The notes under the pieces were generated by a model, which had not been told where the DNA came from, ran no database searches, and saw only the letters and a list, made by a program, of their open reading frames with translations. A DNA stretch of 63,085 nucleotides from an uncultured Candidatus Saccharibacteria bacterium (GTDB lineage: Bacteria > Patescibacteriota > Minisyncoccia > Minisyncoccales > CAZJYT01): assembly GCA_964552375.1 (NCBI GenBank), contig CAZKFX010000002.1, positions 1 to 63,085 of the forward strand, in the 5' to 3' direction. Shown in pieces: positions 3,801-54,195 of the stretch (position 1 is its first letter; every line of letters starts with the position of its first letter). The position numbers and the translations under genes were made by a program.

Positions 3801-4388
3801 ATGCGAGAAAAAATTGAAAAAAAGATAGAAAACCCAGAAAAAGAAAGAAAATTGACCCCGAAACAAAGATATGTTTTAGATTTTACTATTGAGGGGAAAG
3901 TTTTAAAAGAAATAAAAAATTTTAAAATTTCTTCTTTAAAAAAACTAAAAGGAAAACAAAGAGAAACTGCAGTAGAAAATCTTAAAAGTAATAATGTTTT
4001 AAAAATAGAAAATGATAAAATTGAAAAAATAAATTGGGAAAATTTGGAAAGATTTTTTGAAAAGACAAGAGGAGGTCAAATTTTAAAATTTATTAATGAA
4101 TATGAGGTTTTAAATGTCCCTTTGCTAGAAAAATTGCTTGATGTCTCCCCTACTCCTATTAGAAAAGAAACCTTTGCTCTTTTGTCTTGTGGATTGGTAG
4201 CGAGAGTAAAAGTTAAAGAAAAATATTTTTTTGTTCCTTTAAAAACAGCGGAAGAATTAGAAAAAATCAGGAGAGAAAAACCTTTCATAAGATCAAGAGA
4301 AAAAAGGTGGGAAGAAAAAATAATGAAAAAATTTGAAGAAAATTTAGAAAAAATTTCAAAAAATTCTTCTGATAAACTGAGCTCTTAA
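3801..4388 (+). CDS. Hypothetical protein (lysine/glutamate-rich)
   Basis: ORF track gives 3762-4388. ATG 3801 (MREKIEKKIENPEK...) avoids overlap with the upstream stop at 3793. The 3' end overlaps the convergent aroC by 33 nt. No motif recognised. Confidence 0.45.
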   Translation: MREKIEKKIENPEKERKLTPKQRYVLDFTIEGKVLKEIKNFKISSLKKLKGKQRETAVENLKSNNVLKIENDKIEKINWENLERFFEKTRGGQILKFINEYEVLNVPLLEKLLDVSPTPIRKETFALLSCGLVARVKVKEKYFFVPLKTAEELEKIRREKPFIRSREKRWEEKIMKKFEENLEKISKNSSDKLSS

Positions 4389-5450: not shown

Positions 5451-5457
5451 AATTAAT

Positions 5458-7501: not shown

Positions 7502-8339
7502 TTTTAGCTATCGGATAAGAACCCAAAATTTTTATAAAGGTTGTCTTTTTTTTCAAGTCCTCTAAAGCTTTTTTTATTTTTTCTTCTTTAATGTTTCCAA
7601 TAAAATCCAAATAAAAATGATATTCCCAGGGCTTTCCGATAATTGGACGAGATTCAATTTTTGTCAAATTTATCTTTCTTTTGGCAAATGGTTTTAAAGC
7701 TTCATATAAAGCTCCTGGTAAATGCTTTAATCCAAAAACAATAGAAGTTTTACTTTCTTTAGTAAAATTTCTTTCAGTTTTTGAAATAACTAAAAAACGA
7801 GTGAAATTTTTTTTATTTGTCTCAATCCCTCTTTTTAAAATTTCCATTCCATAAATTTTTCCTGCCCATTCTGAAGCTACAGCTCCACTATCTTTTTTTG
7901 TTTTTCTTTTCAATATCTTTACTGCTCCAGCTGTATCATAAACTGGAATTGCTTTTACTTTCAATTTTTGTAAAAATTCTCTACACTGAGATAAGGCTTG
8001 CCAATGTGAATAAACTTTTTTTAAATTTTCAATCTTTGTTCCTTTTTTCCCTATTAAACACAACTTTATTCTCAAAATTTGCTCGCCATAAATTTTCAAG
8101 TTAAATTTTAACAAAAGATCATAGTTTTCTCCTATTGTTCCTCCCAAAGAATTCTCTATAGGCACGATACCAAAATTTGATTTTTCTTTTTTAACACTCT
8201 CAAAAACCTCATAAAAACTTTCACAAGGCAAGGTTTCTATTTTTTCACCAAAAAATTTAATTGCTGCCATTTCAGAAAAGGCTCCCTTTTCTCCCTGGAA
8301 AGAAACTTTAATCTTTTTGGATTTTTTTGGCATTTTCAA
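7491..8339 (-). CDS. pheA: Prephenate dehydratase with C-terminal ACT domain
   Basis: Signature blocks: KVSFQGEKGAFSEMAA, VPIENSLGGTIGENYD, TRFLVIS, LTKIESRPIIGKPWEYHFYLDF. Confidence 0.88.
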   Translation of the reverse strand: MKMPKKSKKIKVSFQGEKGAFSEMAAIKFFGEKIETLPCESFYEVFESVKKEKSNFGIVPIENSLGGTIGENYDLLLKFNLKIYGEQILRIKLCLIGKKGTKIENLKKVYSHWQALSQCREFLQKLKVKAIPVYDTAGAVKILKRKTKKDSGAVASEWAGKIYGMEILKRGIETNKKNFTRFLVISKTERNFTKESKTSIVFGLKHLPGALYEALKPFAKRKINLTKIESRPIIGKPWEYHFYLDFIGNIKEEKIKKALEDLKKKTTFIKILGSYPIAKNGN

Positions 8340-9243
8340 TTAAAAATTTAAATATTTTTTTGACAAAAATTAAATCTAAAGATTTCTCTTTTGCTAATTT
8401 TTGGACCATTTCCATCAATTTTTTTTCTCTTTCTTTATCTTCAATTTGTATTTGGGCTTTCTTTTTTAATTTTTTCAACTCTAAAACAATTTCTTTTCTT
8501 TTTGATAAAATTTCAATTAATCTAAAAGTTATTTTGTCTAATTTTTTTCTTAGCTTTAAAATTTCTTTCCAGGCTTTAAGTTGTTCAATAGTCAATTGAC
8601 CAGGACCTGTTTTATCTTTTAAAGCAAAATAAGAAAAGAAATTGTCTTCAATTGTTTCTAATCTTGACCTTTTCCCCAATTCTCCCATAGAAATTAAAAT
8701 TGATTTTTTTCTTTCTTTTTTTAACTGTTTTAAAAATTTTAAAATTATTTGATTTTCTCTCTTGGTTTTTGGCAAAAAAGCAAATTTTAAAATATCTGGT
8801 TTTAAAGCTTCCATTCTCTTTTTTATCTCTTTTAGCTTTTTTAAATTTACTTTATCTTTAAAATTATGATAACTCAAAATTATCTTCGTTTTTGAATTTC
8901 CTTTCAATTCCTTAGCATTCTTTTTTAATTTCTCTAAAAATTCCAATTCTATATCTAAAAAGTCAAAATTTAAAAGAATAGCTTTTTTTATCAAATTTTG
9001 CTTTTTTTCAAAAGGAATTTGAAAAACTCCACCTTCTTTTTTTTCTCTCAATGTTAAAATGAAAGGAATTTTCAATTTTTTTGAAATTTCTTTTAATTTT
9101 TCTAAATCTTTTTCACAAATTTGCAAAAAACTATCTCCTCTTATTTCAATTACTTTTGCTCCCTCTTTTTTAGCTAATTTTGTTTTGTCTATTATCTCTT
9201 TTAAATCTCCTTTAAAAAATAAAGGAACAACGATTTTTCCCAT
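8308..9243 (-). CDS. aroD: Bifunctional type I 3-dehydroquinate dehydratase / AroQ-class chorismate mutase fusion
   Basis: The N-terminal ~215 aa carry type I DHQase blocks: VIEIRGD, ILTLREKKEGG, LDIELE, IILSYHNF, ILKFAF (Schiff-base Lys position), ISMGELGKRSRL, GPGQLTIEQL. The C-terminal ~90 aa look like a chorismate mutase helix bundle: LRKKLDKITFRLIEILSKRKEIVLELKKLK ... REKKLMEMVQKLAKEKSLDLIFVKKIFKFLIENAKKIQ. Confidence 0.8.
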   Translation of the reverse strand: MGKIVVPLFFKGDLKEIIDKTKLAKKEGAKVIEIRGDSFLQICEKDLEKLKEISKKLKIPFILTLREKKEGGVFQIPFEKKQNLIKKAILLNFDFLDIELEFLEKLKKNAKELKGNSKTKIILSYHNFKDKVNLKKLKEIKKRMEALKPDILKFAFLPKTKRENQIILKFLKQLKKERKKSILISMGELGKRSRLETIEDNFFSYFALKDKTGPGQLTIEQLKAWKEILKLRKKLDKITFRLIEILSKRKEIVLELKKLKKKAQIQIEDKEREKKLMEMVQKLAKEKSLDLIFVKKIFKFLIENAKKIQKD

Positions 9244-14680: not shown

Positions 14681-17185
14681 TTAATATCTTTTTATAATCT
14701 CAAATTTATCTGTAATTTCAATCTTTTCTCCTTTTTTTATTTTTCCTGCCAAAATTGCTTCTGCTAAAAGATTTCCTATTTTCTCTTGAATTACTCTTTC
14801 CATAGGTCTAGCTCCAAACTCTGGAGAAAACCCAAGTTCTACTATTTTCTCTTTTAGAGGTTGGGTAATTATCAAATCAATTCCCTTTTCTTTTAATTTT
14901 AATTGAATTTCCTTTAGCAAAATTTCTGAAATTTCTAACAAATTTTCTTTAGAAAGAGGTTTGAAAGCAACCACTGCATCAAAACGATTTAACAATTCTG
15001 GTCTAAAAATTCCATTTTTAATTAAATAATCTATTAATTCTTTTTGAAATTCCTTCCAAGGTTTATTTTTTCTAACCGCCTCAAAAATTAATTGATAACC
15101 TGCATTGGAAGTACAAATTAAAATTGTATTTTTAAAATTAACTTTTCTTCCTAAACCATCTGTCAAATGTCCTTCATCTAAAACCTGCAAAAACAAATTT
15201 AAAATATTGGGATGAGCTTTTTCAAACTCATCTAACAAAACTAAAGAAAAAGGTTTTTCTCTTACAGGTTGAGTAAGTAATCCTTCTTGTTCTCTTGAGC
15301 CTAAAAGTCGGGAAATATCATTTAAGGTCTGAAATTCAGACATATCTAATCTAATTATTCTTTTTTCAGAACCAAAATAAATTTTAGCTAAAACTTTAGC
15401 GGTTTGAGTTTTTCCAACCCCTGTAGGTCCCAAAAACAAAAAGCTTCCCATGGGTCCTTTTCTTACTTTCAATTCCGTTCTTGCCCTTCTTAAAGCAGAG
15501 CAAATTTCTTTAATAGCTTGCTCTTGATCAATTAATCTTTGATGAATTAATTTTTCCAAATTCAAAAGAATTTTTCTTTCTTTTGATTCAATCTCACCTA
15601 CTGGAATTTTGGTTCTTTCTTTAATTACATAATGGACATGTTTTGAAAGCAAAACCTTTTCTTGAGTTTGAGTCAAATAAATAATGGTTTCTTCTAACAA
15701 ATCAATTGCCTTTTCTGGAAAAGGAATAGCGGGAAGATATTTTTTTGAAAGCTTAATAATATCTCTTAATGCTAAATAAGAAATTAATTTTTTGTATTTT
15801 CTTTCTAAAAATAAAGCCAATCTCATTAACAAAATTAATGTCTCTTTTTCTGAAATTTCAGAAATCTCTACTTTTTCAAAAAGTTCTAACATTAAAGGAT
15901 TTAATTCAATATATCTATGTAATCCTTCAAAGGTGGTAATAGCAATAGTTTGAAATTCAGCTAAATGTAAATAAGAAGATAAAATTCCAGAAATATTCAC
16001 CATTCCAGGGCCTGTGCTTTGTCCTACATAGTTGTGAAATTTATCAATAACCAAAATTACATTTTTAGCTGAGATTACTTCTTTAAAAATTTTATCTAAA
16101 GTTAATTCTACAAGATGGGGATCTAAAATTTGAGCTTGCAATTTGGCAATATTTAATAAAACAAATCTCTTGTGATTTATTTGAGGTAAACTCTCACCCA
16201 AATCACTTTTTACTGCTAAAGCATAAACCAAACTTTTTCTTCCACTTCCTTTTTCTCCAACTATTAAAACATCATTTTTGCTTTCTTGACGAGCCAAAAT
16301 TCTCTCTGCTTCTTTCAATTCCTCTTCGTGTCCTAAAAAGTCTGGATATCCTTGTCTTCTTACTACCCTTGTCAAATCAATAGAAAATCTATCTAAAGTA
16401 ATTGTAAAACCTGCTGCCCAATCTCTGGCAATAGATCCCCATTTTACTAAATTTTTCCATTCCCAAAATTTTTTTTGTTCATTTGTTTTATTAACTAAAT
16501 ATTCATAAACAGAAATTAAATTTTCCAAATCTTCAATTTTAATCTCAATTTCAATCAAGAGCTTTTGAAAAATCAAATTATATTTTGCCAAAGCCAACAA
16601 TAAATCTTGGGGTTTTACTCTTTCATGTCCTTTTTTTTGAGCAATTTTCAAACTTTCAAAAATTACCTTTTCAAAATTTTCTTTTTCGTCTTTTAATTTC
16701 CTTAAATATTTTGCTAAAAATTTTTGCAATTGCTTTGAACTTAAATTTATTCTCAAAAAAATAAAATCTAACTCTGGACATTTCTCTAAAAGATGATAAA
16801 AAAGCGAAAAAGTATTCTTTTTTGATTTTAAAATAACTTTAGCTACCTCAAAACTTAAAAATTCTGCCAAATTATATTTTTTTGGATCTTTTAAGGCTTC
16901 TTTGAGAGTTATTTTTAATTTTGGATTTTTTAATTTTGTCTCAAAAAAAACTTTTTGATACCAACTAAATATAAAAAATGGCAAAAAAAAGAGACAAATT
17001 CCTAAAAATCGTTTTTGAAGAGAAAAAGAAAAGGTATTAATTTTATAACCTGCTAAAAATAAAATTAAAAAAATCAAAAACAAAATCCCAAACAGTTTTT
17101 GAAAAAAGGGGGCAAATTTGAAAGCTGGATCTTTTGACAACTTTATTGCTTTAAAGATTTTTGTTTTTTTTAAATCAAAATTCAT
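14681..17185 (-). CDS. Membrane-anchored Clp/Hsp100-family AAA+ ATPase (degenerate first module, intact second module)
   Basis: N-terminal hydrophobic helices (FGILFLIFLILFLAGY, FLGICLFFLPFFIFSWY) are followed by Clp_N-like repeats (LSFEVAKVILKS..., VIFESLKIAQKKGHERVKPQDLLLAL). Module 1 has VGEKGSGRKS and VIDKFH. Module 2 has LGPTGVGKTQTAK, LVLLDEFEKAHPNILNLFLQVLDEGHLTD and GARPMERVIQ. I saw no long ClpB M-domain and no IGF/VGF ClpP-docking loop. Confidence 0.8.
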   Translation of the reverse strand: MNFDLKKTKIFKAIKLSKDPAFKFAPFFQKLFGILFLIFLILFLAGYKINTFSFSLQKRFLGICLFFLPFFIFSWYQKVFFETKLKNPKLKITLKEALKDPKKYNLAEFLSFEVAKVILKSKKNTFSLFYHLLEKCPELDFIFLRINLSSKQLQKFLAKYLRKLKDEKENFEKVIFESLKIAQKKGHERVKPQDLLLALAKYNLIFQKLLIEIEIKIEDLENLISVYEYLVNKTNEQKKFWEWKNLVKWGSIARDWAAGFTITLDRFSIDLTRVVRRQGYPDFLGHEEELKEAERILARQESKNDVLIVGEKGSGRKSLVYALAVKSDLGESLPQINHKRFVLLNIAKLQAQILDPHLVELTLDKIFKEVISAKNVILVIDKFHNYVGQSTGPGMVNISGILSSYLHLAEFQTIAITTFEGLHRYIELNPLMLELFEKVEISEISEKETLILLMRLALFLERKYKKLISYLALRDIIKLSKKYLPAIPFPEKAIDLLEETIIYLTQTQEKVLLSKHVHYVIKERTKIPVGEIESKERKILLNLEKLIHQRLIDQEQAIKEICSALRRARTELKVRKGPMGSFLFLGPTGVGKTQTAKVLAKIYFGSEKRIIRLDMSEFQTLNDISRLLGSREQEGLLTQPVREKPFSLVLLDEFEKAHPNILNLFLQVLDEGHLTDGLGRKVNFKNTILICTSNAGYQLIFEAVRKNKPWKEFQKELIDYLIKNGIFRPELLNRFDAVVAFKPLSKENLLEISEILLKEIQLKLKEKGIDLIITQPLKEKIVELGFSPEFGARPMERVIQEKIGNLLAEAILAGKIKKGEKIEITDKFEIIKRY

Positions 17186-17595
17186 TGAATTTTAAAAATA
17201 AAATCTAAAAAAGTCTCTTTTCCTTGGATTAATTGAAAGCTCAAAATTAAACTTAAAATTAAAAGAAAAGGTAAAAACAACCAGCCCAAAAAAACTAAAA
17301 GCCCTAAAACAAATATTGAAATTTCAAAAATTATTCCTATTAAAATAACAATTGTTCTTAAAATAGCTCCTATAGTTCTTGTCACTAAATTTGAAAGGAA
17401 GACCAAAACAAATTGAGCAACATCAAAACTTTTAGGATATTCCCACCGATAACCATGCCACCAATAAAAAATAGTTTTTAAAAGTAAAGGAATGGAAAAA
17501 TAATAAAGTCCAAATTTTAAAAAATTTTTCCAAGCCTTCAAAATTTTTTGAGGAACTTCAAAAAAATGCCAAGATAAATATTGAAAGATTAACAT
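17182..17595 (-). CDS. Small polytopic membrane protein (hypothetical), translationally coupled to the Clp-like ATPase
   Basis: 137-aa ORF with several hydrophobic helices (YYFSIPLLLKTIFYWW, IVILIGIIFEISIFVLGLLVFLGWLFLPFLLILSLIL). Its stop overlaps the downstream ATG in an ATGA (17182-17185). Confidence 0.55.
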   Translation of the reverse strand: MLIFQYLSWHFFEVPQKILKAWKNFLKFGLYYFSIPLLLKTIFYWWHGYRWEYPKSFDVAQFVLVFLSNLVTRTIGAILRTIVILIGIIFEISIFVLGLLVFLGWLFLPFLLILSLILSFQLIQGKETFLDFIFKIQ

Positions 17596-25130: not shown

Positions 25131-25179
25131 ATCTTGGTTTAAAGAGAAATTTAATATTATAACACATTATTTTCTTTAA

Positions 25180-26019
25180 TTAAAAATCAGAAAGAGTTTT
25201 TTGAACTCTCTTTGGGTAGATTTTTTCAAGATCTTTTGCGTTTTCTTTTGGAATAACTCCTTGGTTTTCTTTTAAAATTTTTACAATTTTTTCTACTCTT
25301 TGTAAAAAAGCTGAAATTTCTCTTTGGTCCAAAAGCTCTTCTTTTTCTATGATTTTCTTAAACTCGTCTTTTCTTTCTGAAAGAAAATCTTCTAAATCTT
25401 TTAATAATTCTGGAGGAAGTTTTTTGTCTAATATTTCAGGATTTATTTCCAAAGGTCTTTCAAAAAAACTCTCTTCATTATCAATGGCATATATTTGAGA
25501 TTTGTTTTCATCAATCAAAATATTTCCTCTTCTATCTTTGTGAGCAATAATGTAATCAAGAACCCAAAGATAAAACAATTGATTTTCTATATTATTTGGA
25601 ATTTTTCCTTTAAATTTTTCTTTTGAAAAAACTTGAGCTTCAGGAATCCACAATTGAAAAGAACCTTTTTCTTTTATTGTTTCTTCAACTCCTGAAATTT
25701 TAATTTTTATTTCCATTTCTCTAATCTCTGTAGGAGGAACCAAAGACAACTGAGGAAATAAAAATTTGCTTAAAAGATAAACCGCTTTTTCTTTTCTGTT
25801 AAGTTCACCTCTACCTGGTTTAAAAATTCCAGAAATTCCAGAGTCTAAATTTACTAAAAAAACATTAAAAGGCTTACCTAATACTTTTTCTGATTTAATT
25901 AAGAAAGCTTCTTTTGGATTTTCAGTTTCTAATTTTTTTAAAATTTCTCTTTCTTTCTCATTTATTGGCAATTCAATTTCTTTTTTTAAAATTTTTTCTC
26001 TTGATTCTCTCATTTTCAA
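25180..26019 (-). CDS. Type II phosphatidylinositol-4-kinase-like (PI3/PI4-kinase superfamily) protein
   Basis: Blocks align with the human PI4K2A sequence as I remember it. [13 protein letters not shown] matches [22 protein letters not shown] matches [20 protein letters not shown] matches [31 protein letters not shown] matches [30 protein letters not shown] matches VAAIDNGLAF. Its start overlaps the upstream stop (26016-26019). Confidence 0.6.
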   Translation of the reverse strand: [279 protein letters not shown]

Positions 26020-28487
26020 AGCTCTTTTAATTTTGCTCTTTTTATAATTTCTCTCTCTACAGCTTTTTTGGGTCTTGAGTATTTCAATTTTGAAATTTTT
26101 TTAATAATTTCTACTATCTCTGGATTTCCTTTTTTGGGAGGCAAAGTCTGCATTTTAAAAGGAGAAGAAATTTTATTTTTAATCATCAATTTAATAATTA
26201 CATTAAAATTATCTAAATTTACTAAATCATATCTGGAAAATTCAGGCTCAAATTGTTTTTCTAAAAATTCAGCATCTGTTGCTCCAACCCTTAAAGCTGC
26301 AATAGTCCCTACATTTCCCATTACCGCATTTCTAATTTCTTCTTTTAATTGAGGAATGTATTGATGGGCTAAAATTAAATTTAATCTATATTTTCTTGCC
26401 TCAGATAAAATTACAGCAACAGAATCTGTAGTAAAATTTTGAAACTCATCAATGTATAAATAAAAGTCTCTTCTCTGTTCTTCTGGAATTTTAGCTCTCT
26501 TCATTGCCGCCATTTGCATTTTAGAAACCAAAATTAAACCTAAAAGAGAACTGTTTACCTCTCCAGTCAATCCTTTTGATAAATTTGCCAAAAATATTTT
26601 CCCTTCATCCATAATTTTTGACAAATCAAAACTAGAATGAGATTGACCAATAATATTTCTCATCATCTCATTTTCTACAAATCTTCCTACTTTTGAGACC
26701 ACATAACCTAACATATCTGATTTTGTCTCTCCAGTGGTTTGGCGCCATTCTTTTAACCAGAAATTTCTTACTAAGGGATCAGTTACCTTTTTCAATTTGC
26801 TTTCCATAAAATCATCGTCTGTAAAAATTCTGGGGATTTCGACTAAAGTTCCTGGATTTTTTTGATCTGCCATCAAAGCTAACATTGCATTTCTCATATA
26901 ATGTTCAAACATAGGACCTATAATTTCTGGAGGGAACAATTTGTGAAAAATGGCTATCATTTCAGAAACCGCAAAATCTTTCTGTTCTGGGGTTTCGTAT
27001 TCTAACATATTCAACCCCATTGGTCTTTCCAAATCAAAAGGTTCAAACAAAACAACATCATCAATTCTTTCTTTTGGAATATTAGCTAATGTAGCCTCAA
27101 TTAAATCACCGTGAGGATCAATTACCCCTACTCCCCTCCCTGCTTTAATATCTTGTCTTATCATTTCTCTTAACAAGGTTGATTTTCCAGTTCCAGTTTG
27201 TCCTACAATATAAAAATGTCTCCTTCTATCTTCTACAGAGGCCATATAAACCATCTTTTCTTCTCCTCTAAAAACTACCTTTCCTATTAAAATTTCTCCA
27301 AAAGAAGGCAATTCTACTGGTGGTGGAGCACTAGTACTTTTTACTGATTTTATATAAGGTGTTTCAATAAATTTGGTTGGGAAATGATAAATACTTGTCA
27401 ATTCTTCCACATTTAAAATTATTTTTTGACTATTGTCAAAATTGCGAAAACTAAAATCATAAATTAATTTTTTCAGTCTTCTCCCTGTTAATCTTTGACA
27501 ATAAAAGCTATTCATTGAAAGCAAAGAAAATTGACCAAAAGCTGATTCCAAATGAGTTAAAATTTCTCTTGCTCTTTCTTTTGTCTGAGCTGAAGCTAAC
27601 AGCCTAATATTTACCTCAAAAACCCTTTTTTGAATTTTCTCTTCTATGGCTTTAATTGTTCTTTCTTCAACTCGCATTTCTTTTTGAGGTTGAGTAGGTG
27701 AAGTTTGGTTTGGTTTTTGTAATTGTGGTTTTTTAGTAAAAATTCCACCAAAAAAATTAAAGATTAAATCTAAAATCCAATTTCTTGAAGCTTCATTTAT
27801 CGCTTGTCTTAAAGATTTTCCTTCTTTTATTTTGGCCAACAATCTTTCTCCCATTATTTTCCATTTTTCTTCCGGAAAAGGTCTTAAAATTAATTGAAGA
27901 GCAGCTCCTTCTTCTGGGTTTATTTTAGAAAGAGAATCAGTAATCAGAGAGAGGGGATCTTTTTCCAAAGTTTTATAAGTGTTAAGAGGAAAAAAAGCTT
28001 TTTCTGTTAATTTAAGATAGGCGCCAGCTGTCTCACCTCCTGGTTCAAAAATTGTGTAATCTTGAGGAATTTTTTCTATTATTGCTCTTGGATAAACTCC
28101 GTGAATATATTTTTCAATAGCTGATTCTAAAAATTTGGGAACCGCAATATAAAAAGAAATATCATTTTCTCCCAATTGAGAAGCAATTTCTAAGGCAATT
28201 TCTATGGGGCTTTCAAAAAATTTTTTTCTAAATTGCAAAAAATTGGCATAAATTTGTTCCATTTGAGCAATTATTTGTTTTTCTTGAATTGTCTCTCCTT
28301 CTTTCTTTTTCTCATATTTTGGCATCGTCACCAAAAAAAGCACTTTATTTAAAGAACGAAATATTCTCTCTTTTTTATTCTTTTGATTCCAAAAAAAGTA
28401 CAAAATTAAAACCAAAAAAGAGAAAATTAAAAAAGAGAGAATTTGAAAAAAATTGACTTCAAAATTCTTAAATAAAATTTCTCTCAT
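26016..28487 (-). CDS. Membrane-anchored VirD4/TraG/TraD-like (type IV coupling-protein-like) P-loop NTPase
   Basis: N-terminal TM helix (FFQILSFLIFSFLVLILYFFW), then a ~380-aa domain of unknown type, then HFYIVGQTGTGKSTLL (Walker A), GVGVIDPHGDL, FYLYIDEFQNF (Walker B) and EARKYRLNLILAHQYIPQL (TraG-D_C-like end). HerA/FtsK-like alternatives are not excluded without a search. Confidence 0.7.
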   Translation of the reverse strand: MREILFKNFEVNFFQILSFLIFSFLVLILYFFWNQKNKKERIFRSLNKVLFLVTMPKYEKKKEGETIQEKQIIAQMEQIYANFLQFRKKFFESPIEIALEIASQLGENDISFYIAVPKFLESAIEKYIHGVYPRAIIEKIPQDYTIFEPGGETAGAYLKLTEKAFFPLNTYKTLEKDPLSLITDSLSKINPEEGAALQLILRPFPEEKWKIMGERLLAKIKEGKSLRQAINEASRNWILDLIFNFFGGIFTKKPQLQKPNQTSPTQPQKEMRVEERTIKAIEEKIQKRVFEVNIRLLASAQTKERAREILTHLESAFGQFSLLSMNSFYCQRLTGRRLKKLIYDFSFRNFDNSQKIILNVEELTSIYHFPTKFIETPYIKSVKSTSAPPPVELPSFGEILIGKVVFRGEEKMVYMASVEDRRRHFYIVGQTGTGKSTLLREMIRQDIKAGRGVGVIDPHGDLIEATLANIPKERIDDVVLFEPFDLERPMGLNMLEYETPEQKDFAVSEMIAIFHKLFPPEIIGPMFEHYMRNAMLALMADQKNPGTLVEIPRIFTDDDFMESKLKKVTDPLVRNFWLKEWRQTTGETKSDMLGYVVSKVGRFVENEMMRNIIGQSHSSFDLSKIMDEGKIFLANLSKGLTGEVNSSLLGLILVSKMQMAAMKRAKIPEEQRRDFYLYIDEFQNFTTDSVAVILSEARKYRLNLILAHQYIPQLKEEIRNAVMGNVGTIAALRVGATDAEFLEKQFEPEFSRYDLVNLDNFNVIIKLMIKNKISSPFKMQTLPPKKGNPEIVEIIKKISKLKYSRPKKAVEREIIKRAKLKEL

Positions 28488-28879
28488 TTTTTAAATTTTT
28501 TAAAAAACCCATCTTTTGCTAAAATATCATGGAAAACATCTAAAATATAAGGGTCATCAAGTTTTTGAGCCACTTTAACTGCAAAAGAAATTCCATAAAC
28601 TTGAGCCAAATCTAACAATTTTGTAATTTTTCCTTTAGCATCCAAAGTTTTAATTTTTTGAGCTTTAAAATTAATTTTTTGTTGAGCCTTAGGAGAAAAT
28701 TTCATTAATTCAATTTCTCTTTTTAGCTTTTCTTTAATTATTTTCTCTCTTTCGGTCAAAACTTCTTTTTTTTCTGTCTTTTTTTCTATTACCTCTTCAA
28801 AAACTTTCTCTACTAATTTTTCTGGTTTTTCAATCCCAATTTCTTTTTTTTCTTTATATTTTTTATTTTTTTCCACCAT
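28484..28879 (-). CDS. Hypothetical small protein (charged N-terminal half, helical C-terminal domain)
   Basis: 131-aa ORF starting 5 nt after the murF-like stop. Its own stop overlaps the ATPase start (28484-28487). C-terminal block: ITKLLDLAQVYGISFAVKVAQKLDDPYILDVFHDILAKDGFF. No family recognised. Confidence 0.5.
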   Translation of the reverse strand: MVEKNKKYKEKKEIGIEKPEKLVEKVFEEVIEKKTEKKEVLTEREKIIKEKLKREIELMKFSPKAQQKINFKAQKIKTLDAKGKITKLLDLAQVYGISFAVKVAQKLDDPYILDVFHDILAKDGFFKKFKK

Positions 28880-28884
28880 AAAAT

Positions 28885-29949
28885 TTACTTTAATTTGATT
28901 TTCTCAACAACGCTTTCCATTTTCATTTCTTTTGAACCCAAAACTAAAATTAAATCATTTTCTCTAATTTCATTTTTTAATTTTTCTATCCCTTCTTTTA
29001 TTGTATCAAATTGAAAAATTTTTTCTAAAGGCAAACCTTTTTCAAAAGCCCCCTTGGCCACAAACTTTGCTCTCTGACCAAAAGTAAATAAAAGATCACA
29101 ACATTCTTTTAACTTTTCTCCCAACATTTGATGAATTTCAATTGTATATTTACCCAATCCTACAATATCTCCTAAAACAGCAATTTTTCTTTTAAAAAGA
29201 GAAATTTTTTTAAAAATTTCTAAAGCCTCCATAATTGAAAAGATTCCTTCTATTTTAGAATTATCAAAAATTTTAGAATTTTTTATTCCACAAATTAATC
29301 TCATTTTTCCTGGTCTTCCCTTATAACCCTTCAAAGATTGAGTAATTTCAATTAAATTTAAATTCAAAACCTTACACAAAGCACAAGTTGCCAAAACAGC
29401 AAAAATATATTCTTTACCAAATAAATTTTCTAACCAAATGGGTAAAATTTTATTTTCAAAATTTAATTTAAAATTTGTCCCTGAATTTATTTTAATATCT
29501 GTTGCTTTAAAATCAGCTAAATTCGCAAAACCAAAAGTAATTTCTCTTAAATTAGTCTCGTCTCTAATCTCTCTGATTGTTTCGTCATCATAATTTAAAA
29601 TTAAATAGCCGAAAGGAGGCAATTTTTTAGCATATTTTCTAATTTCTTTTGTCTTTTCTCTTTCTCCAGCAAAAAAATCTTTATCATGAGGAATTTCTCC
29701 AATATGAGTTAAAATTAAAATTGGCAATTGAGAAAGAGAAACAAATTTTTCTACTTTTTTCTCTTTTTTAAAATCTATTTTTTCTACTAAAATATCTCTT
29801 TTTTTACCTAAAACCTTTTCAATAATGTCAAAAGTAATTTCTTTACCATTGCCCCAAACCATTACTACTTTTGGTTTTTTAAAAAGAAATCTCCAAAAAT
29901 TGAAAAAAGAAAAATTATTCATAATCTGGAGGAATTTCTTTGTAAGCAA
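28885..29949 (-). CDS. Mur-ligase-family protein, MurF-like, lacking the N-terminal domain and with an atypical P-loop
   Basis: The central and C-terminal Mur ligase domains are recognisable: LTHIGEIPHDKDFFAGEREKTKEIRKYAK, GYLILNYDD, KGYKGRPGKMRL, IAVLGDIVGLGKYTIEIHQMLGE, DLILVLGSKEMKME. The P-loop region reads VWGNGKEIT, not the usual GSNGKTTT. The start is uncertain: 29949 overlaps ftsI by 35 nt, and the alternatives are 29922 and 29862. Confidence 0.6.
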   Translation of the reverse strand: MLTKKFLQIMNNFSFFNFWRFLFKKPKVVMVWGNGKEITFDIIEKVLGKKRDILVEKIDFKKEKKVEKFVSLSQLPILILTHIGEIPHDKDFFAGEREKTKEIRKYAKKLPPFGYLILNYDDETIREIRDETNLREITFGFANLADFKATDIKINSGTNFKLNFENKILPIWLENLFGKEYIFAVLATCALCKVLNLNLIEITQSLKGYKGRPGKMRLICGIKNSKIFDNSKIEGIFSIMEALEIFKKISLFKRKIAVLGDIVGLGKYTIEIHQMLGEKLKECCDLLFTFGQRAKFVAKGAFEKGLPLEKIFQFDTIKEGIEKLKNEIRENDLILVLGSKEMKMESVVEKIKLK

Positions 29950-31567
29950 TAATATATTTTGCCAATTTTTTAAAAATTAAGGTTGCCGATAGCCCAGAAC
30001 CAATAACTCCTTTTGGCTCATTTAATTTAACATAAATTAAAAATTTTGGATCATAAGCAGGAAAAAAACCTAAAAAAGAATGAATAGTTTTGTCTGAATA
30101 ACCAGCTTTTTTGATTCCCAAAGCTGGCCAGGGAATTTGAGCGGTTCCTGTTTTTCCAGCAATAAAATAACCTGGAATTTTTGCTCTTTTTCCATATCCT
30201 TTTTCTACTACATTCACAAGCATTTTTGTTAATTCTTTTGCGACAGTCTCAGAAATCACTCTGGGATTTTGAATTTCTATTTCTCCTTTGGTTATCCTTG
30301 GTTTTATTAATTTTCCTCCATTAGCTATAGCCCCATAGGCTCTTACCAATTGAATAGGAGTAATAACAATTCCTTGACCAAAAGAGGCTGTAGCTAAATT
30401 TATTTTTTTTAGTGTCATTAATTGTTCGTTTTCTGAAAATACCTCCCCTTCCAAATCAATACCTGTTTTTTCAAAAAACCCAAATCTTTTTAAATATTCC
30501 AAAAAAAGTCTTTCTCCTAATTTTTGTTCTACAAAAACCGCTCCTGTGTTAATTGACTTTTCCAAAATTTTACTCATTGAGCTTTCTCCCCAAATTTTAT
30601 TTTGCCAATTTCTAATAATTTTTCCTTCAATTTTAACAAATCCTTTATCAAAAAAAGTCATTTGTGAAGTAATCTTTCCTTCATTTAAAGCTCCAGCCAT
30701 AACAATTGGTTTTAAAACAGAACCTGGTTCATAGAGCTCTTGAATATTTGGATTTTTAAAAATTTCCCATTTTTCTTCTTGAGCATATTCAAAAAATCTA
30801 TTAGGATCGAAAGAAGGAAAAGAAGCCATGGCTAATATTTCTCCAGTATTAGGATCTGAAACAATAATTTGTCCTTCAGTAATTTTCAATTTCTCTTTAG
30901 CTTCTCTCAATAATTTTTCTGCTTGAAATTGGATATTATAATCAATTGTTAAAAATATATCTTTTCCTTTTTTTGATTCTTTTTGAGCAAAAACTGCCAA
31001 ATATTTCCAAGGAGTAAGTAATTTTTCTTTTAAAACCTCCTTTCCTCGCAAAATATTATCATAATATCCTTCTATTCCATATTGACCTTTTCCTTGAGCA
31101 TTTACAAAACCTACAATATGGCAAGCTATCTCTTTTTGTGGATAAAATCTAAAATCTTTCTGACCAAAGTAAACACCTTTTAAATCTTTCAAAGCCAAAA
31201 ATTCTTTTTCAGAAACTCTATTTTTTATTAATTGAAAGCAATTTTCTTCAAAAACCTTTTTTTTCATCTCTTTTAAGGGGAGATTTAACACTTCAGAGAG
31301 TAATTTTGCTATTTTTTCTTTTTCTTTAATCTCTTTGGGACAAATATATAAAAATTTTTCTTTTTTATTTGTTGCTAATATTTCTCCTCCCCTAAAATAA
31401 ATTTTCCCCCTTTCTCCTGTTTCTCTTTTTAAAATTTTGTGCTGGCCTTGGGCTAAAGCTTGATAGTATTGGCTTTTTTTTACTTGTAAAAAATAAAGCC
31501 TAAAAACCAACGTTAAAGAAAAAAACAAAATTAAAAAGAAAATTATTTTAAATCTTAAATTTTTCAT
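29915..31567 (-). CDS. ftsI: Class B penicillin-binding protein (FtsI/PBP2-type transpeptidase)
   Basis: N-terminal TM helix, then SxxK (GSVLKP), SxN (KSINTG) and KTG (AGKTGTAQ) motifs in the canonical order. Confidence 0.9.
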   Translation of the reverse strand: MKNLRFKIIFFLILFFSLTLVFRLYFLQVKKSQYYQALAQGQHKILKRETGERGKIYFRGGEILATNKKEKFLYICPKEIKEKEKIAKLLSEVLNLPLKEMKKKVFEENCFQLIKNRVSEKEFLALKDLKGVYFGQKDFRFYPQKEIACHIVGFVNAQGKGQYGIEGYYDNILRGKEVLKEKLLTPWKYLAVFAQKESKKGKDIFLTIDYNIQFQAEKLLREAKEKLKITEGQIIVSDPNTGEILAMASFPSFDPNRFFEYAQEEKWEIFKNPNIQELYEPGSVLKPIVMAGALNEGKITSQMTFFDKGFVKIEGKIIRNWQNKIWGESSMSKILEKSINTGAVFVEQKLGERLFLEYLKRFGFFEKTGIDLEGEVFSENEQLMTLKKINLATASFGQGIVITPIQLVRAYGAIANGGKLIKPRITKGEIEIQNPRVISETVAKELTKMLVNVVEKGYGKRAKIPGYFIAGKTGTAQIPWPALGIKKAGYSDKTIHSFLGFFPAYDPKFLIYVKLNEPKGVIGSGLSATLIFKKLAKYIIAYKEIPPDYE

Positions 31568-31887
31568 TGTTTTTTCACTACTTTAATTGAAGGTACTTTC
31601 AAATATTCAATCTTTTCTATTTTTTCAAAATTCAAATTTGCCAAAAGCTTTCTCAAATTTTCTAAAGAGGTAGCTTGAGAAAGAGTAATTTCTAATTTAT
31701 CTTTTTCTTTCGTTAAAACTTCCAATCTTTTAGATTTTTCTTTCAAAATGGCTATTTTTTGAGCTAAAAAGTAAAATTGATAAATATAAAGAATTACTAA
31801 AAATATTAAAAAAATCAAACCTTTCTTTAAAATAAAATTTTCTATTTTAAATTTATTTTTTCTTTTAAATTTTTTTCTTTTTTTCAT
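31564..31887 (-). CDS. ftsL: FtsL-like cell-division protein
   Basis: 107 aa with a basic N-terminus, one TM helix (GLIFLIFLVILYIYQFYFL) and then a coiled coil. It occupies the canonical position between rsmH and ftsI. Confidence 0.6.
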   Translation of the reverse strand: MKKRKKFKRKNKFKIENFILKKGLIFLIFLVILYIYQFYFLAQKIAILKEKSKRLEVLTKEKDKLEITLSQATSLENLRKLLANLNFEKIEKIEYLKVPSIKVVKKQ

Positions 31888-31890
31888 GTT

Positions 31891-32787
31891 TTAAATTTTT
31901 ATTGCTACTCTTAATTTTGCCGACCTTGATTTTAAATTTTGAACTATTTCCTCTTTTTGCGGAACTATTGGTTTTTTAGTTAAAATTTTCAATTTTGATT
32001 TATTTTCTTTAAAAAAATTTTTTACAATTTTGTCTTCTCCTGAATGAAAAGAAATAACAGCTATTTTTCCTCCAGATTTTAAAATCTCTAAAGCCTGCTC
32101 CAAACCCCTTTTTAAATTTTCCAACTCATTATTAACCGCTATCCTTAAAGCCAAAAAAACTCTCGTTGCAAAATGAATTCTTTTGAAATGATACCACTTG
32201 GGTGTTGCCTTTTTGATAATTTGTACCAATTGAAAGGTTGTCTCAATTTTCTTTTCTTTTCTTTCTTTAACAATTTTTTCAGAAATTCTTTTAGCAAATC
32301 TTTCTTGAGCATATTCTTTCAATATTCTCTCTATTTCTTTTTTACTCCATTTGTTTAAAATATCTTTGGCTGTCAATTCATTTATCTTTCCATCGTATCT
32401 CATATTTAAGGGTTCATTTTTCAAAAAGGTAAATCCTCTTTTGGATTCTTCTAAATGCCAACTTGAAAGACCAAGATCAAAAAGTATTCCTTTGATATTT
32501 TCAAATTTTTCTCTTTTTACAATTTCTTTTAAATTTGTAAAAGAACTATTTACCAAAATTAATCTTTCTCTTTTTTCTTTCCATTCTTTTTTATTTCTTA
32601 TTTCCTTTCTCATTTTTTCATAAAGCTCAGGATCAATTTCAATTGCTAAAACTTTTCCTTTTGGTTTTGTTCTTTCTAAAATTTTCAAGGTATGACCTCC
32701 TTGGCCAAAAGTAGCATCAATAAAATTTTCATTTGGTTTTGGATCTAAATAATCTATGATCTCTTTTGAAAGAACTGGAAAGTGCAT
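31891..32787 (-). CDS. rsmH: 16S rRNA (cytosine1402-N4)-methyltransferase
   Basis: Signature blocks: HFPVLSKEIIDYL, DATFGQGGHT, LFDLGLSSWHLE, ISFHSGEDKIVK. Confidence 0.93.
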   Translation of the reverse strand: MHFPVLSKEIIDYLDPKPNENFIDATFGQGGHTLKILERTKPKGKVLAIEIDPELYEKMRKEIRNKKEWKEKRERLILVNSSFTNLKEIVKREKFENIKGILFDLGLSSWHLEESKRGFTFLKNEPLNMRYDGKINELTAKDILNKWSKKEIERILKEYAQERFAKRISEKIVKERKEKKIETTFQLVQIIKKATPKWYHFKRIHFATRVFLALRIAVNNELENLKRGLEQALEILKSGGKIAVISFHSGEDKIVKNFFKENKSKLKILTKKPIVPQKEEIVQNLKSRSAKLRVAIKI

Positions 32788-32796
32788 TGCAATTTT

Positions 32797-33228
32797 TTAA
32801 ATTCCTAATTCCTCTAATTTTTCTGCCATATTCTCAATTTCTTTTTCTCTTTTTTGTTTATATTCTTGCCATAATTCTTTTGCCCAAATTTCAATCCTAT
32901 TGGAAAGGCCCAACAAAACAACATTTTTTTTAAGTTGTGCAAATTCCTTTAAATAATCTGGAATTAAAATCCTTCCCAATTTGTCCAATTCAACATTTAC
33001 TGCTCCAGAAAGCAAAATTCTGGCAAAAGCTCTTGCATCTGGTTTGCTCAAAGGTAGGCTTTCTAATTTTTTGGCTACTTTCTCCCAAACCTTTAGAGGA
33101 TACAAAACTAAACAATTATCTAAACCTCGTGTAATAACTGCCTTTTTACCTAATTCTTTCCTAAATTTTACAGGAATTGAGACTCTCTTTTTTTCATCTA
33201 TAGTAAATACATATTCTCCAATAAACAT
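32797..33228 (-). CDS. mraZ: Transcriptional regulator MraZ
   Basis: MFIGEYVFTIDEKKRVSIP plus a second half-site, LDKLGRILIP, give the duplicated DxxGRxxxP motif. I prefer the start at 33228 over 33252 because a copy of the upstream repeat lies between the two ATGs. Confidence 0.9.
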   Translation of the reverse strand: MFIGEYVFTIDEKKRVSIPVKFRKELGKKAVITRGLDNCLVLYPLKVWEKVAKKLESLPLSKPDARAFARILLSGAVNVELDKLGRILIPDYLKEFAQLKKNVVLLGLSNRIEIWAKELWQEYKQKREKEIENMAEKLEELGI

Positions 33229-33232
33229 ACAA

Positions 33233-33358
33233 TTTTCCACAATTTTAGCCATTTTTCAACATATTTTTCCACAATTTCCCACTATTAAAAATAGCCTTTT
33301 TTGTCTATTAAGTCAAATCAAAAAATTCAGCTAAAATTTCTTTTTTTCCACAATTTTT
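33233..33358 (-). promoter_or_regulatory. Three exact copies of a 13-mer (minus strand AAATTGTGGAAAA) plus an adjacent GTGGG box: candidate MraZ operator
   Basis: On the plus strand, TTTTCCACAATTT occurs at 33233-33245, 33265-33277 and 33344-33356. An extra CCCAC (minus GTGGG) lies at 33278-33282, 10 nt from the GTGG of copy 2. All of these lie immediately upstream of mraZ. Confidence 0.45.
33288..33316 (-). promoter_or_regulatory. Candidate dcw-operon promoter (Pmra)
   Basis: Minus strand reads TTGACT (33316-33311), a 17-nt spacer, then TATTTT (33293-33288). The GTGG boxes start right downstream. The -10 element is weak. Confidence 0.35.
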
Positions 33359-35052: not shown

Positions 35053-37251
35053 TTATACATTTTGCCAATCTTTTTCTTCTTTATTTTCGTTATCTTCTCT
35101 AATTAAAACCTCTCTTGGTTTGGAACCGTCAGGAGGTCCTACAATTCCATTTTTTTCTAAAATATCTAAAAGTCTTGCTGCTCTGGCATATCCTATTCTT
35201 AACCTTCTTTGTAAAAGAGAAGCAGAAGCTTTTTTGGCTTCAATAACAATTTTTTTTGCTTCTTCATATAAAGGATCTTTATCTGAATCTTCGTCCGGAA
35301 AAGAAAAAGCAATTTCTTGTGGCATTTGAGGACCCTCTATTAAAATTTGTTCTGGAATTTTGAAAAATTCTTTTTGGTCTTTATATTTAAGGCTTATCCA
35401 AGAGACAACTTTTCTTATTTCTTTTTCTGAAATAAAGGGTGCTTGAATTCTTTTTGGTTTTCCTAATTCTGGAGAGAAAAACAAAAAGTCTCCCCTACCA
35501 ATTAACTTTTCTGCTCCCCCCATATCTAAAATTGTTCTAGAATCAACTTGAGAAGCTACTTGAAAAGCTACTCTGGCTGTAATATTAGCCTTAATTAAAC
35601 CAGTAATTACCTCTACTGAAGGTCTTTGAGTGGCAACTATTAAATGAATACCTACCGCCCTAGCCTTTTGAGCTAATTTTACAATTCCTGCTTCCATTTC
35701 TCTCCCCTTAAAAGCCATTAAATCAGCTAATTCATCAATAATTAAAATTATATAAGGTAAAACTTCTTTTTGGTTTTTTATCATCTTTTCATTATAGCTT
35801 CTAATATCTCTGGCTTTCGCCTCTGATAAAACATCAAATCTTCTCTCCATTTCTGTAATTAGCCATTTTAAAACATTCACTGTATGTTGGGCATTATAAA
35901 TTACTGAACAAAGTAAATGAGGGAGATCATTATAAATAGGAAATTCTACTCTTTTGGGATCAACTAAAATTAATCTAATGATTTCAGGGCTTCCACCAAA
36001 AATATTAAAATTGTTAGGAGGACGATATAAAAGACTCAATAAAATAGAGTTCAAAAAGAGAGTTTTTCCAGAACCTGTAGCTCCAGCTACTAATAAATGA
36101 GGCATTTTTTCTAAATCAGTATAAACTGGATTACCAGAAACATCTCTTCCCAAAACAATCGGCAAAGAATACCAAGAATTTTGAAAAAGAGGGTTTTTAA
36201 TTAATTCTCTTAATCTCACTTTGGCCCGAATTTTATTTGGAACCTCTACTCCTACTAATGATTTTCCAGGAATGGGAGCTTCAATTCTAATAGGATGACT
36301 GGCTAAAGCTAAAGCTAAATCATTTGAAAGGGTAGTAATTTTTGATAATTTTATTCCTTCAGCAGGTTTAAAAGTATATTGAGTCACAGTAGGTCCAATA
36401 TTTACCCCTCCCATTTCTACTGGAATCCCAAAATTTTGAAGGGTTTTTTTAATGATAGCTGAATTTTGTTTAATATCACCACTAGTGGGAATTTCACTTT
36501 CTTTTTCTAAAAGCTCAAATGGAGGAGGAGAATAAAAAGATTTTTTTGGCTTGGAAATAGAAGTGATTTTCAATTGGGGCATTGGAGAAATCATGGGACG
36601 AGGTTTTATTTCTAATTTTTTTGGAGGACTAACTTCTTTTAATTTTAATTGAGGAGGTCTACTTAAAATTTCTCTAATAATTGACTTTTTCTCTCTTTTT
36701 TCTTTTTTTTCAACAGAAATTTCTCTTTCTTTTAGAGAGGGTCTAAAAACCTGCCAAAAAATAATAACTCCCAAAATCAAAAAACCAAAACAAATAATAA
36801 AACTTAACCAAGAACCAAATAAAATATTTAAAATTTTTCCTATAAAAATTTTACCCAAAACACCTCCTTTCCCCTTCCAAAGAGAAAAAATTCCAGAGGC
36901 TCCTACAATAAAGAAAACAGAGGCTAAAAAAAGATTAGAAAAATCTTTTCTTTTTTTCACCAAGAAAAAAGAAAAAATTGCCAAAGATAAAAATAAAATA
37001 GGAAAAAAGAAAATTGCTTTACCAACCAAAAAATAAAAAATTTCAAAAAAAATTTTTCCTGCTCTTCCTCCAAGATCAAAAAAACTCAAAAAAGAAACAA
37101 GAGAAAGAAAAACCATTAAAAAGCCAAAAATTAACCTTTGAGTTTGCTCAGAAAGAGAAAGCGAAAAATGAGAAAAAAGAGAAAAAATTTTAAAGGGCTT
37201 TTTCTTTTTTGGTTTAAAATTTCTTTTTATCTTTTTGGATTTCTTTCTCAT
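35053..37251 (-). CDS. ftsK: DNA translocase FtsK/SpoIIIE
   Basis: N-terminal TM helices and a proline/lysine-rich linker, then LLVAGATGSGKTLFLNS (Walker A), ILIIDELADLM (Walker B) and the C-terminal gamma domain SLLQRRLRIGYARAARLLDILEKNGIVGP. Confidence 0.92.
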   Translation of the reverse strand: MRKKSKKIKRNFKPKKKKPFKIFSLFSHFSLSLSEQTQRLIFGFLMVFLSLVSFLSFFDLGGRAGKIFFEIFYFLVGKAIFFFPILFLSLAIFSFFLVKKRKDFSNLFLASVFFIVGASGIFSLWKGKGGVLGKIFIGKILNILFGSWLSFIICFGFLILGVIIFWQVFRPSLKEREISVEKKEKREKKSIIREILSRPPQLKLKEVSPPKKLEIKPRPMISPMPQLKITSISKPKKSFYSPPPFELLEKESEIPTSGDIKQNSAIIKKTLQNFGIPVEMGGVNIGPTVTQYTFKPAEGIKLSKITTLSNDLALALASHPIRIEAPIPGKSLVGVEVPNKIRAKVRLRELIKNPLFQNSWYSLPIVLGRDVSGNPVYTDLEKMPHLLVAGATGSGKTLFLNSILLSLLYRPPNNFNIFGGSPEIIRLILVDPKRVEFPIYNDLPHLLCSVIYNAQHTVNVLKWLITEMERRFDVLSEAKARDIRSYNEKMIKNQKEVLPYIILIIDELADLMAFKGREMEAGIVKLAQKARAVGIHLIVATQRPSVEVITGLIKANITARVAFQVASQVDSRTILDMGGAEKLIGRGDFLFFSPELGKPKRIQAPFISEKEIRKVVSWISLKYKDQKEFFKIPEQILIEGPQMPQEIAFSFPDEDSDKDPLYEEAKKIVIEAKKASASLLQRRLRIGYARAARLLDILEKNGIVGPPDGSKPREVLIREDNENKEEKDWQNV

Positions 37252-54191: not shown

Positions 54192-54195
54192 TTTT

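Follow-up and report, generated by a model that had tools for sequence, protein, structure and literature searches.

What holds three tightly packed genes together at the end of a cell division gene cluster, a shared function or merely their position? The question is raised by a 63,085-nucleotide stretch from an uncultured "Candidatus Saccharibacteria" bacterium of the GTDB phylum Patescibacteriota (assembly GCA_964552375.1, contig CAZKFX010000002.1; here, the window). On its minus strand, the first genes of the division and cell wall (dcw) cluster run without interruption into genes encoding a small protein of 131 amino acids (aa), an 823-aa ATPase related to type IV coupling proteins (T4CPs), and a 279-aa protein related to type II phosphatidylinositol 4-kinases (PI4KII). 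An earlier note, written from the letters of the sequence, had described the three open reading frames (ORFs) as a functionally coupled cassette that is embedded in the dcw operon and resembles no described system. All three ORFs are present where the note had placed them. Our analysis, which builds on directly observed gene order, homologies, co-occurrence statistics, and motif conservation, leads us to regard it as probable that the region consists of two independent units, a small-protein/ATPase pair and a stand-alone kinase-fold protein, which are neighbors by chance in this lineage.

Distribution of the three genes in related loci

For the ATPase side of the survey, 80 loci from distinct GTDB species, with ATPases 61 to 81% identical to that of the window, were fetched and their ORFs were called; counts are given for 79 of them. 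The small-protein gene lies directly upstream of the ATPase gene in 68 of the 79 loci and within three genes of it in 74, and the junctions between the two are mostly short or overlapping. The kinase was not found in any of the 79 loci (BLASTP at 1e-3; phmmer, E ≤ 10; family hidden Markov model [HMM], E ≤ 1), and tblastn searches for a remnant in six related loci, including L001 to L003 and L059, returned nothing significant (best E = 1.0). L001, which carries the closest relative of the ATPase (81% identity), has the same upstream dcw genes as the window and neither the kinase nor a remnant of it.

The kinase side, represented by 80 metagenomic loci (L082 to L161), gives the same picture. The ATPase gene is found within 8 kb of the kinase gene in one locus and the small-protein gene in none. 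Because the ATPase gene occurs about twice per genome of about 1 Mb, this single locus was judged to be compatible with chance. All three genes together were seen in none of the 79 ATPase-side loci and in none of the 80 kinase-side loci. The earlier note had itself named co-occurrence in other genomes as the test of its three-gene cassette, and since the trio does not recur, the cassette falls by that test.

The position within the dcw cluster is likewise restricted. The full order mraZ-rsmH-ftsL-ftsI-murF'-small protein-ATPase (murF' being a short murF-like gene) recurs in L001 to L003, the three nearest relatives, and, with two genes inserted, in L071. In L020 and L064, ftsI is the gene directly before the pair, and in five more loci it lies 6 to 11 genes upstream on the same strand, so that dcw adjacency amounts, on a generous count, to about 11 of the 79 loci. 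In most loci the pair is preceded by an HlyD-ABC-MacB-MacB run and a protein of about 206 aa with a transmembrane (TM) anchor, and is followed by a convergent efp gene; in others, it is preceded by cation transporters or a methyltransferase. With the dcw order limited to L001 to L003, L071, and a few others, the linkage amounts to lineage-restricted synteny instead of characterizing the pair as such, contrary to the embedding in the dcw operon that had been proposed.

The protein of about 206 aa (e.g., L078:6888-7514) has its TM anchor at the N terminus and belongs to no Pfam family. It occupies the -2 position in 51 of the 79 ATPase loci and is typical of Staskawiczbacteria-type loci, where it is usually preceded by HlyD, an ABC ATPase, and two MacB/FtsX permeases. 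An HMM search of all six frames did not find it in the window.

The ATPase, its small partner, and the kinase-fold protein

The ATPase is composed of an N-terminal TM helix (residues ~9 to 35), a DUF8128 domain (PF26449; ~40 to 390), and a P-loop motor C-terminal of these. The large N-terminal domain had been noticed from the sequence and left unassigned; the precomputed Pfam annotation identifies it as DUF8128, a family for which a literature search returned no match. The motifs GQTGTGKST, IDPHGDL, YIDEFQNF, and EARKYRLNLILAHQ listed in the earlier note are all found in the translation, with Walker A (GQTGTGKS) at residues 429 to 436, Walker B (YLYIDEF) at 676 to 682, and the ARKYRLNLILAHQ motif at 697 to 709. 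By hydropathy, the segment at ~9 to 35 is the sole hydrophobic one, as had been reported. Its net flanking charge is 0 before and +5 after, which by the positive-inside rule gives an N-out/C-in topology with the remainder of the protein in the cytoplasm. This implies an N-terminally membrane-anchored protein with a predicted cytoplasmic DUF8128 domain and motor.

The assignment to the VirD4/TraG-like proteins holds. The ATPase scores 40.6 bits against PF10412 (TrwB_AAD_bind; gathering threshold, 20.5) and 32.9 bits against PF02534 (T4SS-DNA_transf; gathering threshold, 20.1), with matches spanning residues 414 to 717. PF01935 (DUF87) is also matched above its gathering threshold (37.5 bits), over residues 401 to 473 only, and the NCBIfam model of the VirD4-like CD1115 family is matched at 1.4e-11, under its equivalog cut-off. 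More than 6,312 relatives were found; among the best 120, identity is 65 to 81% over the full length. In public databases, its close relatives bear the name [quoted passage not shown] or "DUF87 domain-containing protein." In L001, L002, and L003, the ATPase is 81, 74, and 74% identical to that of the window, compared with 69, 54, and 54% for FtsI and 63, 60, and 55% for RsmH. In these genomes, the ATPase is thus better conserved than either protein, and it appears to be under strong constraint.

Outside the Patescibacteria, related sequences are found on plasmids. A tblastn search of plasmids with the ATPase gave 369 records with relatives (Bacillus, Streptomyces, Clostridium, Staphylococcus, haloarchaea, and Sulfolobus), 17 of which cover at least 80% of the query. 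In the three plasmid contexts that were opened, the homologue holds the coupling-protein position of a monoderm conjugation operon, among genes for a replication-relaxation protein, VirB4-size ATP-binding proteins, PrgI, TcpE, "conjugal transfer proteins," and an NlpC/P60 hydrolase. In an hhalign comparison, the ATPase aligns with a Bacillus plasmid T4CP, which adjoins a replication-relaxation gene and conjugal transfer genes, over 668 columns (query residues 40 to 777; 99.8% probability; 1.1e-27). By BLASTP, it matches an Embleya plasmid T4CP, encoded between a VirB4-like ATPase and a relaxase-type gene, at 2e-68 over residues 67 to 802 (about 735 residues). Because the homology is full-length and takes in DUF8128, we assign the ATPase to the T4CP lineage of monoderm conjugation as a genuine member, N-domain included.

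The T4CPs of monoderm plasmids of the MPF_FATA type (Bacillus, Streptomycetaceae, and haloarchaea) share with the ATPase the architecture of N-terminal region, DUF8128, and motor, as well as the Walker A, Walker B, and ARK...Q motifs. They differ in three respects. (i) They are flanked by relaxase-type, VirB4-like, PrgI, TcpE, and NlpC/P60 genes, and the window ATPase is not; a BLASTP comparison of the plasmid relaxase, VirB4-like, PrgI, and TcpE proteins with the window and the 79 loci brought up no relatives. (ii) They have no small upstream partner. (iii) They are only 22 to 27% identical to the ATPase, whereas the Patescibacteria versions are 65 to 81% identical among themselves. The canonical TrwB of R388 and VirD4 have the P-loop motor in common with the ATPase (PDB profile match to TrwB [1e9r, 1gl6] of 2.1e-5 around Walker A), but TrwB carries two TM helices and lacks a DUF8128-like domain, and its sequence similarity to the ATPase is limited to the motor.

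Other P-loop ATPases were considered and rejected. The ATPase is not an FtsK paralog, since PF01580 scores only 20.3 bits (threshold, 24) in the vicinity of Walker A; nor is it a substitute for FtsK, since a canonical FtsK is encoded 7 kb away at 35053-37251 on the minus strand (FtsK_alpha, FtsK_SpoIIIE, and FtsK_gamma matched at 1e-29 to 1e-53). It is not a HerA helicase either: with NF040819 it reaches 26 bits where the cut-off is 970, the PF01935 match is partial, and no NurA-like neighbor turned up in the window or in those related loci that were looked at closely. The earlier note, for which an ordinary FtsK/HerA paralog would have been a refutation of its view, was therefore right to set the protein apart. 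As for VirB4, its N-terminal family PF03135 does not match the ATPase at E ≤ 1. A Foldseek search with the predicted ATPase model gave TrwK/VirB4 as best matches (E = 2.8e-4, 726 columns, TM-score 0.19), on a low-confidence model, and these are kept as a lead; the sequence favors a T4CP over VirB4.

Coupling proteins without a secretion system nearby have been reported in this phylum, so that the locus does not lie outside every described system, as had been thought. According to the relevant passages of Quiñonero-Coronel et al. (2025, Microb Genom, PMC12102498), 5,713 VirD4-type T4CP homologues exist in 2,918 of 3,035 Patescibacteria genomes; 148 of these genes lie near virB4, and relaxases are almost absent. 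The window ATPase fits this description of a chromosomal, near-universal VirD4-family protein that is encoded away from virB4 and without a relaxase, and Pfam/CONJScan-type similarity suggests that its subfamily is included among the 5,713 homologues. The same passages describe no small upstream partner, no DUF8128 N-domain, and no dcw linkage. For "Candidatus Southlakia epibionticum," they report a distant, non-essential t4cp homologue, whereas Wang et al. (2023) describe the T4SS of this organism as having no recognizable coupling and relaxase proteins. A Pfam scan of 36 ORFs, which are a part of those in the window, showed no VirB4, VirB6, relaxase, or integrase domain, and none is listed in the precomputed Pfam labels for 8.6 kb of contig ahead of the window and 5.4 kb past its end. 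The earlier view that the region does not look like a conjugative element agrees with this.

The small protein lacks a TM segment and belongs to none of the Pfam, NCBIfam, or PADLOC families. Its N-terminal ~85 residues are rich in Lys and Glu (48% K+E), and its C-terminal ~45 residues are conserved in the alignment of its relatives (LLxLAxxxGxxFAVxVAxxMNDPYxLDxFHDxLA). These relatives, 189 in number, are each named "hypothetical," and none has a Pfam domain.

For the kinase-fold protein, a word-indexed database search returned only the protein itself, and an exhaustive search of 1.84 billion representatives yielded 200 relatives at E ≤ 1e-3, the nearest of them 44% identical. That nearest relative is encoded between a type IV pilus cluster (pilMN)/Band_7/pyrF on one side and an uncharacterized 257-aa protein on the other. 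The window protein matches PF00454 at 2.7e-4 (21.4 bits; gathering threshold, 27.1) and TIGR03843, the SCO1664 family, at 1.7e-10 (40.7 bits; cut-off, 172.4). As both scores are under the respective cut-offs, it is a relative at the level of fold or superfamily and not a SCO1664 equivalog. Within an alignment of 40 family members, all 40 match TIGR03843 (best, 9.1e-30) and 37 match PF00454 at E ≤ 0.01; one of the 40 matches the NCBIfam model for a type IV secretion system (T4SS) effector, the PI3-kinase RisK1 (5.7e-5).

A profile of this family matches PI4K IIβ (4wtv) at 1.9e-18 and PI4K IIα at 7.9e-16 with the motifs in register, and from these profile matches we take the label "PI4KII-like," given in the earlier note, to be correct at the fold level. 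The profile lines up with these two enzymes at the lysine of FKP, at the helix ExxAYLVD, at the hinge GSxQxF, at the catalytic loop DYIIxNxDRxxxNxL, and at AIDNG; conserved within the aligned family are the FKP lysine, the glutamate of ERAAY, the loop DRHxxN, and IDN, the DFG-equivalent motif. K65, E75, D160, R161, N164, and D178 are retained in the window protein and are invariant or nearly so in the 40-member alignment; with its catalytic residues intact, the protein is apparently active. Compared with type II PI4Ks, it is much smaller (277 aa) and is without the palmitoylation insert and the membrane-binding elements.

The family has a partner of its own. In at least 30 of the 80 kinase loci, a highly conserved protein of about 85 aa (consensus, MKFVEIYKLKNDGSQ...FPKDGLKFLEQLKYNFKSGYLNAS) is encoded 2 to 26 nucleotides (nt) downstream of the kinase (e.g., L085:8791-9057, L088:7612-7869, and L088:8761-9018), and in L088 the kinase/partner pair is tandemly duplicated. 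The loci with this pair range from about 0.3 to 0.7 in GC content. One of these ~85-aa proteins (L085) had no match in PADLOC. Such a partner distinguishes the kinase family; none is known to have been described for PI4KII or SCO1664 proteins. The kinase and the ~85-aa protein look like a two-gene module that would be uncharacterized so far. In the window, a profile search of all six frames did not detect the ~85-aa protein.

Layout of the locus and other features of the window

The features of the locus are collected in Table 1.

Table 1. Genes and spacer at the end of the dcw run
Feature	Positions	Strand	Basis or remark
Small partner protein, 131 aa	28484-28879	minus	ORF, start ATG
T4CP-type ATPase, 823 aa	26016-28487	minus	ORF
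Kinase-fold protein	25180-26019	minus	279 aa from TTG at 26019; 277 aa from ATG at 26013
5' part of dcw cluster: mraZ, rsmH, ftsL, ftsI, murF-like	28885-33252	minus	ORFs and Pfam/NCBIfam
49-nt spacer ahead of GT4-murA-mreB	25131-25179	minus	contains extended -10-like TGTTATAAT at 25156-25164

The junctions were read in the sequence. As reported earlier, 5 nt separate the murF-like stop codon from the small-protein ATG, and packing is tight from mraZ to the kinase: each intergenic distance up to the kinase stop codon is at most 10 nt or an overlap, and the 5' dcw genes and the small-protein/ATPase pair form one gap-free run. Of the two ATGA overlaps that had been claimed, the one shared by the small-protein stop and the ATPase start is a true ATGA. 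The ATPase/kinase junction is either a TTGA overlap, if the kinase starts at TTG, or a 2-nt gap, if it starts at the ATG two codons in, which is the start chosen in public gene calls (277 aa). A terminator scan found no terminator-like site on the minus strand between mraZ and the kinase stop; given the uninterrupted run, co-transcription is plausible, as judged from spacing. Dense packing is general in this small genome, however, so the spacing between ATPase and kinase is no evidence for a functional link. Like the terminator scan, the promoter scan of the region was at chance level (41 sites versus 39.3 expected) and is uninformative in DNA of 27 to 30% GC; the -10-like element before the GT4 gene, found as the earlier note had described it, is a match to the consensus only. 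Base composition is even across the region. The ATPase gene resembles its flanking genes, and the kinase gene is native in composition (GC, 0.26; GC at third codon positions [GC3], 0.14).

The murF-like ligase next to the pair (28885-29949, minus strand) is short: at 345 to 354 aa, it matches only positions 129 to 416 of TIGR01143 and has no N-terminal domain. The short form is kept in L001 and L002. The dcw genes that are missing here simply lie scattered over this genome: a 532-aa Mur ligase and MurJ are encoded just upstream of the window on the same contig (L169).

A layout similar to that of the pair exists at 14681-17595 (minus strand), where a 137-aa ORF overlaps the start of an 834-aa gene; a paralogous second copy of the pair was rejected here, because the large protein is an AAA+ protein of the ClpB/ClpC type and the small proteins are dissimilar. 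This overlap is one example of the dense packing mentioned above. A T2SSE-type (PilB/PilT-like) secretion ATPase is encoded at 48503-49825 on the plus strand; with this ATPase and FtsK, the genome has its usual DNA translocase and a motor for a pilus or for secretion besides the T4CP homologue. At 4356-9243 (minus strand), genes for chorismate synthase, EPSP synthase, prephenate dehydrogenase, prephenate dehydratase, and a dehydroquinase-chorismate mutase fusion follow one another, a notable run in that Patescibacteria are usually described as lacking amino acid biosynthesis. Two adjacent ORFs of 354 and 524 aa at 53127-55770 (minus strand) have no Pfam match and an extreme strand composition unlike that of the rest of the window (AT skew, -0.45 to -0.52; GC skew, about -0.35 to -0.42). 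Past the window end, a type I restriction-modification system (HsdR-like helicase and HsdM methylase; L170:11464-15430) is encoded right after the tRNA-Ser at the window end.

Readings of the locus

The reading that we hold to be probable, two independent units, can be set out as follows. Unit A (28879-26016) is a conserved Patescibacteria pair of a small soluble protein and a membrane-anchored DUF8128-T4CP ATPase. Its ATPase descends from the coupling proteins of monoderm conjugation systems, of the Gram-positive and archaeal type, and is encoded in the phylum by a chromosomal, strongly conserved gene apart from virB4 and relaxases. The single N-terminal helix would tether the ATPase to the inner face of the membrane, where it would probably form a ring, and ATP hydrolysis (Walker A and B being intact) may drive the transfer of a cytoplasmic protein or DNA substrate to a membrane channel, most probably a chromosomal Patescibacteria T4SS encoded elsewhere. 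The small protein, translationally coupled through the ATGA, may bind the ATPase through its C-terminal helical block as an adaptor or regulator. Ring assembly, substrate, the role of the small protein, and the T4SS link are proposed here by analogy with the T4CP family. Unit B (26019-25180) is a stand-alone PI4KII-like/SCO1664-like kinase. Only in this lineage has it come to lie behind the pair, and the ~85-aa protein that usually accompanies it did not come along. It is probably co-transcribed through its position and has no conserved functional link to the ATPase.

Several points weigh against this proposal. (i) T4SS genes were not seen in 77 kb of the source contig. In the passages concerned of PMC12102498, a distant T4CP homologue of "Candidatus Southlakia epibionticum" is dispensable whereas the T4SS genes are essential, and T4CP homologues are found in 2,918 genomes against 2,417 with VirB4; both observations argue that some of the homologues work without a T4SS. 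(ii) The small protein is found solely in Parcubacteria-type genomes, with 189 matches compared with more than 6,312 for the ATPase; either the pair has a narrower distribution than the ATPase family, or divergence may have put the partner beyond detection. (iii) The TTGA overlap or 2-nt gap between ATPase and kinase fits a possible functional link specific to this lineage. (iv) The AlphaFold models are poor, with a predicted local distance difference test (pLDDT) value of 49.8 for the ATPase (21-sequence input) and 39 for the kinase (single-sequence input), so that no conclusion rests on structure.

The first of these points leads to the most serious alternative, to which we give appreciably less credence than to two independent units: the pair may be an exapted housekeeping machine, now an autonomous membrane translocase or remodeling motor for envelope growth or division that acts without a T4SS. 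It may, for instance, handle DNA or protein at the septum or where the cell touches its host. Exaptation of orphan T4CPs is raised as a possibility by the authors of PMC12102498 in the passages cited. It would account for the place after ftsI-murF' and for the very high conservation, which exceeds that of FtsI and RsmH in L001 to L003. The dcw genes stand directly upstream in the window and in L001 to L003 (in L071 with the two inserted genes), ftsI is adjacent in L020 and L064, and elsewhere the pair follows the envelope genes HlyD-ABC-MacB-MacB and the TM-anchored ~206-aa protein. By the counts of PMC12102498, moreover, only 148 of the 5,713 T4CP genes lie near virB4, and T4CPs are found in about 500 more genomes than VirB4. 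Yet dcw adjacency is a minority arrangement (~11 of 79 loci), the canonical FtsK leaves no division role obviously vacant, and true conjugative systems, too, often encode the T4CP far from virB4, as the same source states. With no relaxase or VirB4 nearby, an excess of T4CPs, and high conservation, a T4SS-independent role stays the main rival.

A bolder form of this idea, which we think rather improbable, has a domesticated T4CP and a newly evolved partner making up a core, highly constrained envelope machine that handles DNA or protein at the division site or the site of host contact, without T4SS or relaxase, and the kinase serving as its regulator in this lineage. If so, the location behind the mraZ-ftsI run, seen in several lineages, would be a vestige of this role.

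Less likely again is a three-gene module specific to this lineage, with the kinase recruited to regulate the coupling ATPase or to be delivered by it. The 4-nt overlap or 2-nt gap without a terminator and the native composition of the kinase gene (GC and GC3 as given above) are consistent with such a module, as is the RisK1 match of a single family member to a T4SS effector; and as the kinase has lost its usual ~85-aa partner, it may have gained a new one. A second instance is missing, however, from both sides of the survey (kinase in 0 of 79 ATPase loci, ATPase in 1 of 80 kinase loci). L001, so close in its ATPase and its dcw genes, has no trace of the kinase, and tight packing is the rule in this genome.

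We attach very little weight to an anti-phage defense module built on a HerA- or MADS-like ATPase and accessory proteins. It was suggested by a match of the PADLOC profile mad8 (PDLC04140) to the motor at 1.5e-18, with weaker HerA matches; but, according to the methods of 10.1101/2023.03.30.534895, HHpred alignments to PDB homologues were the source of the MADS profiles, so that mad8 behaves like a generic P-loop model of the TrwB/HerA kind. The neighborhood contains neither the mandatory mad6 and mad7 genes nor the methyltransferase, and dcw and wall genes are found there instead; neither the small protein nor the kinase has a meaningful PADLOC match, and a near-universal, highly conserved gene that is syntenic with housekeeping genes is the opposite of what defense islands display. 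As a separate observation, mad8 scores the T4CP motor more strongly than the Pfam T4CP models do and may give false "defense" calls on T4CP- or HerA-type ATPases.

Scarcely to be credited, finally, is a decayed integrated conjugative element with the T4CP as sole survivor: the nearest relatives outside the Patescibacteria are indeed T4CPs of plasmid conjugation operons, but no relaxase, VirB4, integrase, or tRNA-flanked boundary was found nearby (the tRNAs are more than 32 kb away), all ATPase motifs are intact, the composition is that of the flanking genes, and 65 to 81% identity across many species at conserved chromosomal positions indicates long-term vertical inheritance under selection and not decay.

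Returning to the two independent units, the orphan Patescibacteria T4CP is itself already known from the relevant passages of PMC12102498, and our addition to it is modest. As far as we found, what is new is the small dedicated partner, the DUF8128 domain held in common with plasmid T4CPs, and the conservation of the ATPase above that of FtsI and RsmH.

The value of these findings is incremental: a reported orphan ATPase gains a partner gene and an assignment for its N-terminal domain, and the pairing of the kinase with the ~85-aa protein is flagged as a separate matter. A large part of bacterial diversity consists of Patescibacteria; they are host dependent, and secretion machinery is central to their lifestyle. 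A near-universal T4CP homologue, conserved more strongly than FtsI and encoded apart from T4SS genes, is a sensible candidate for a motor put to new use, and its dedicated small partner offers a handle for interaction and genetic experiments.

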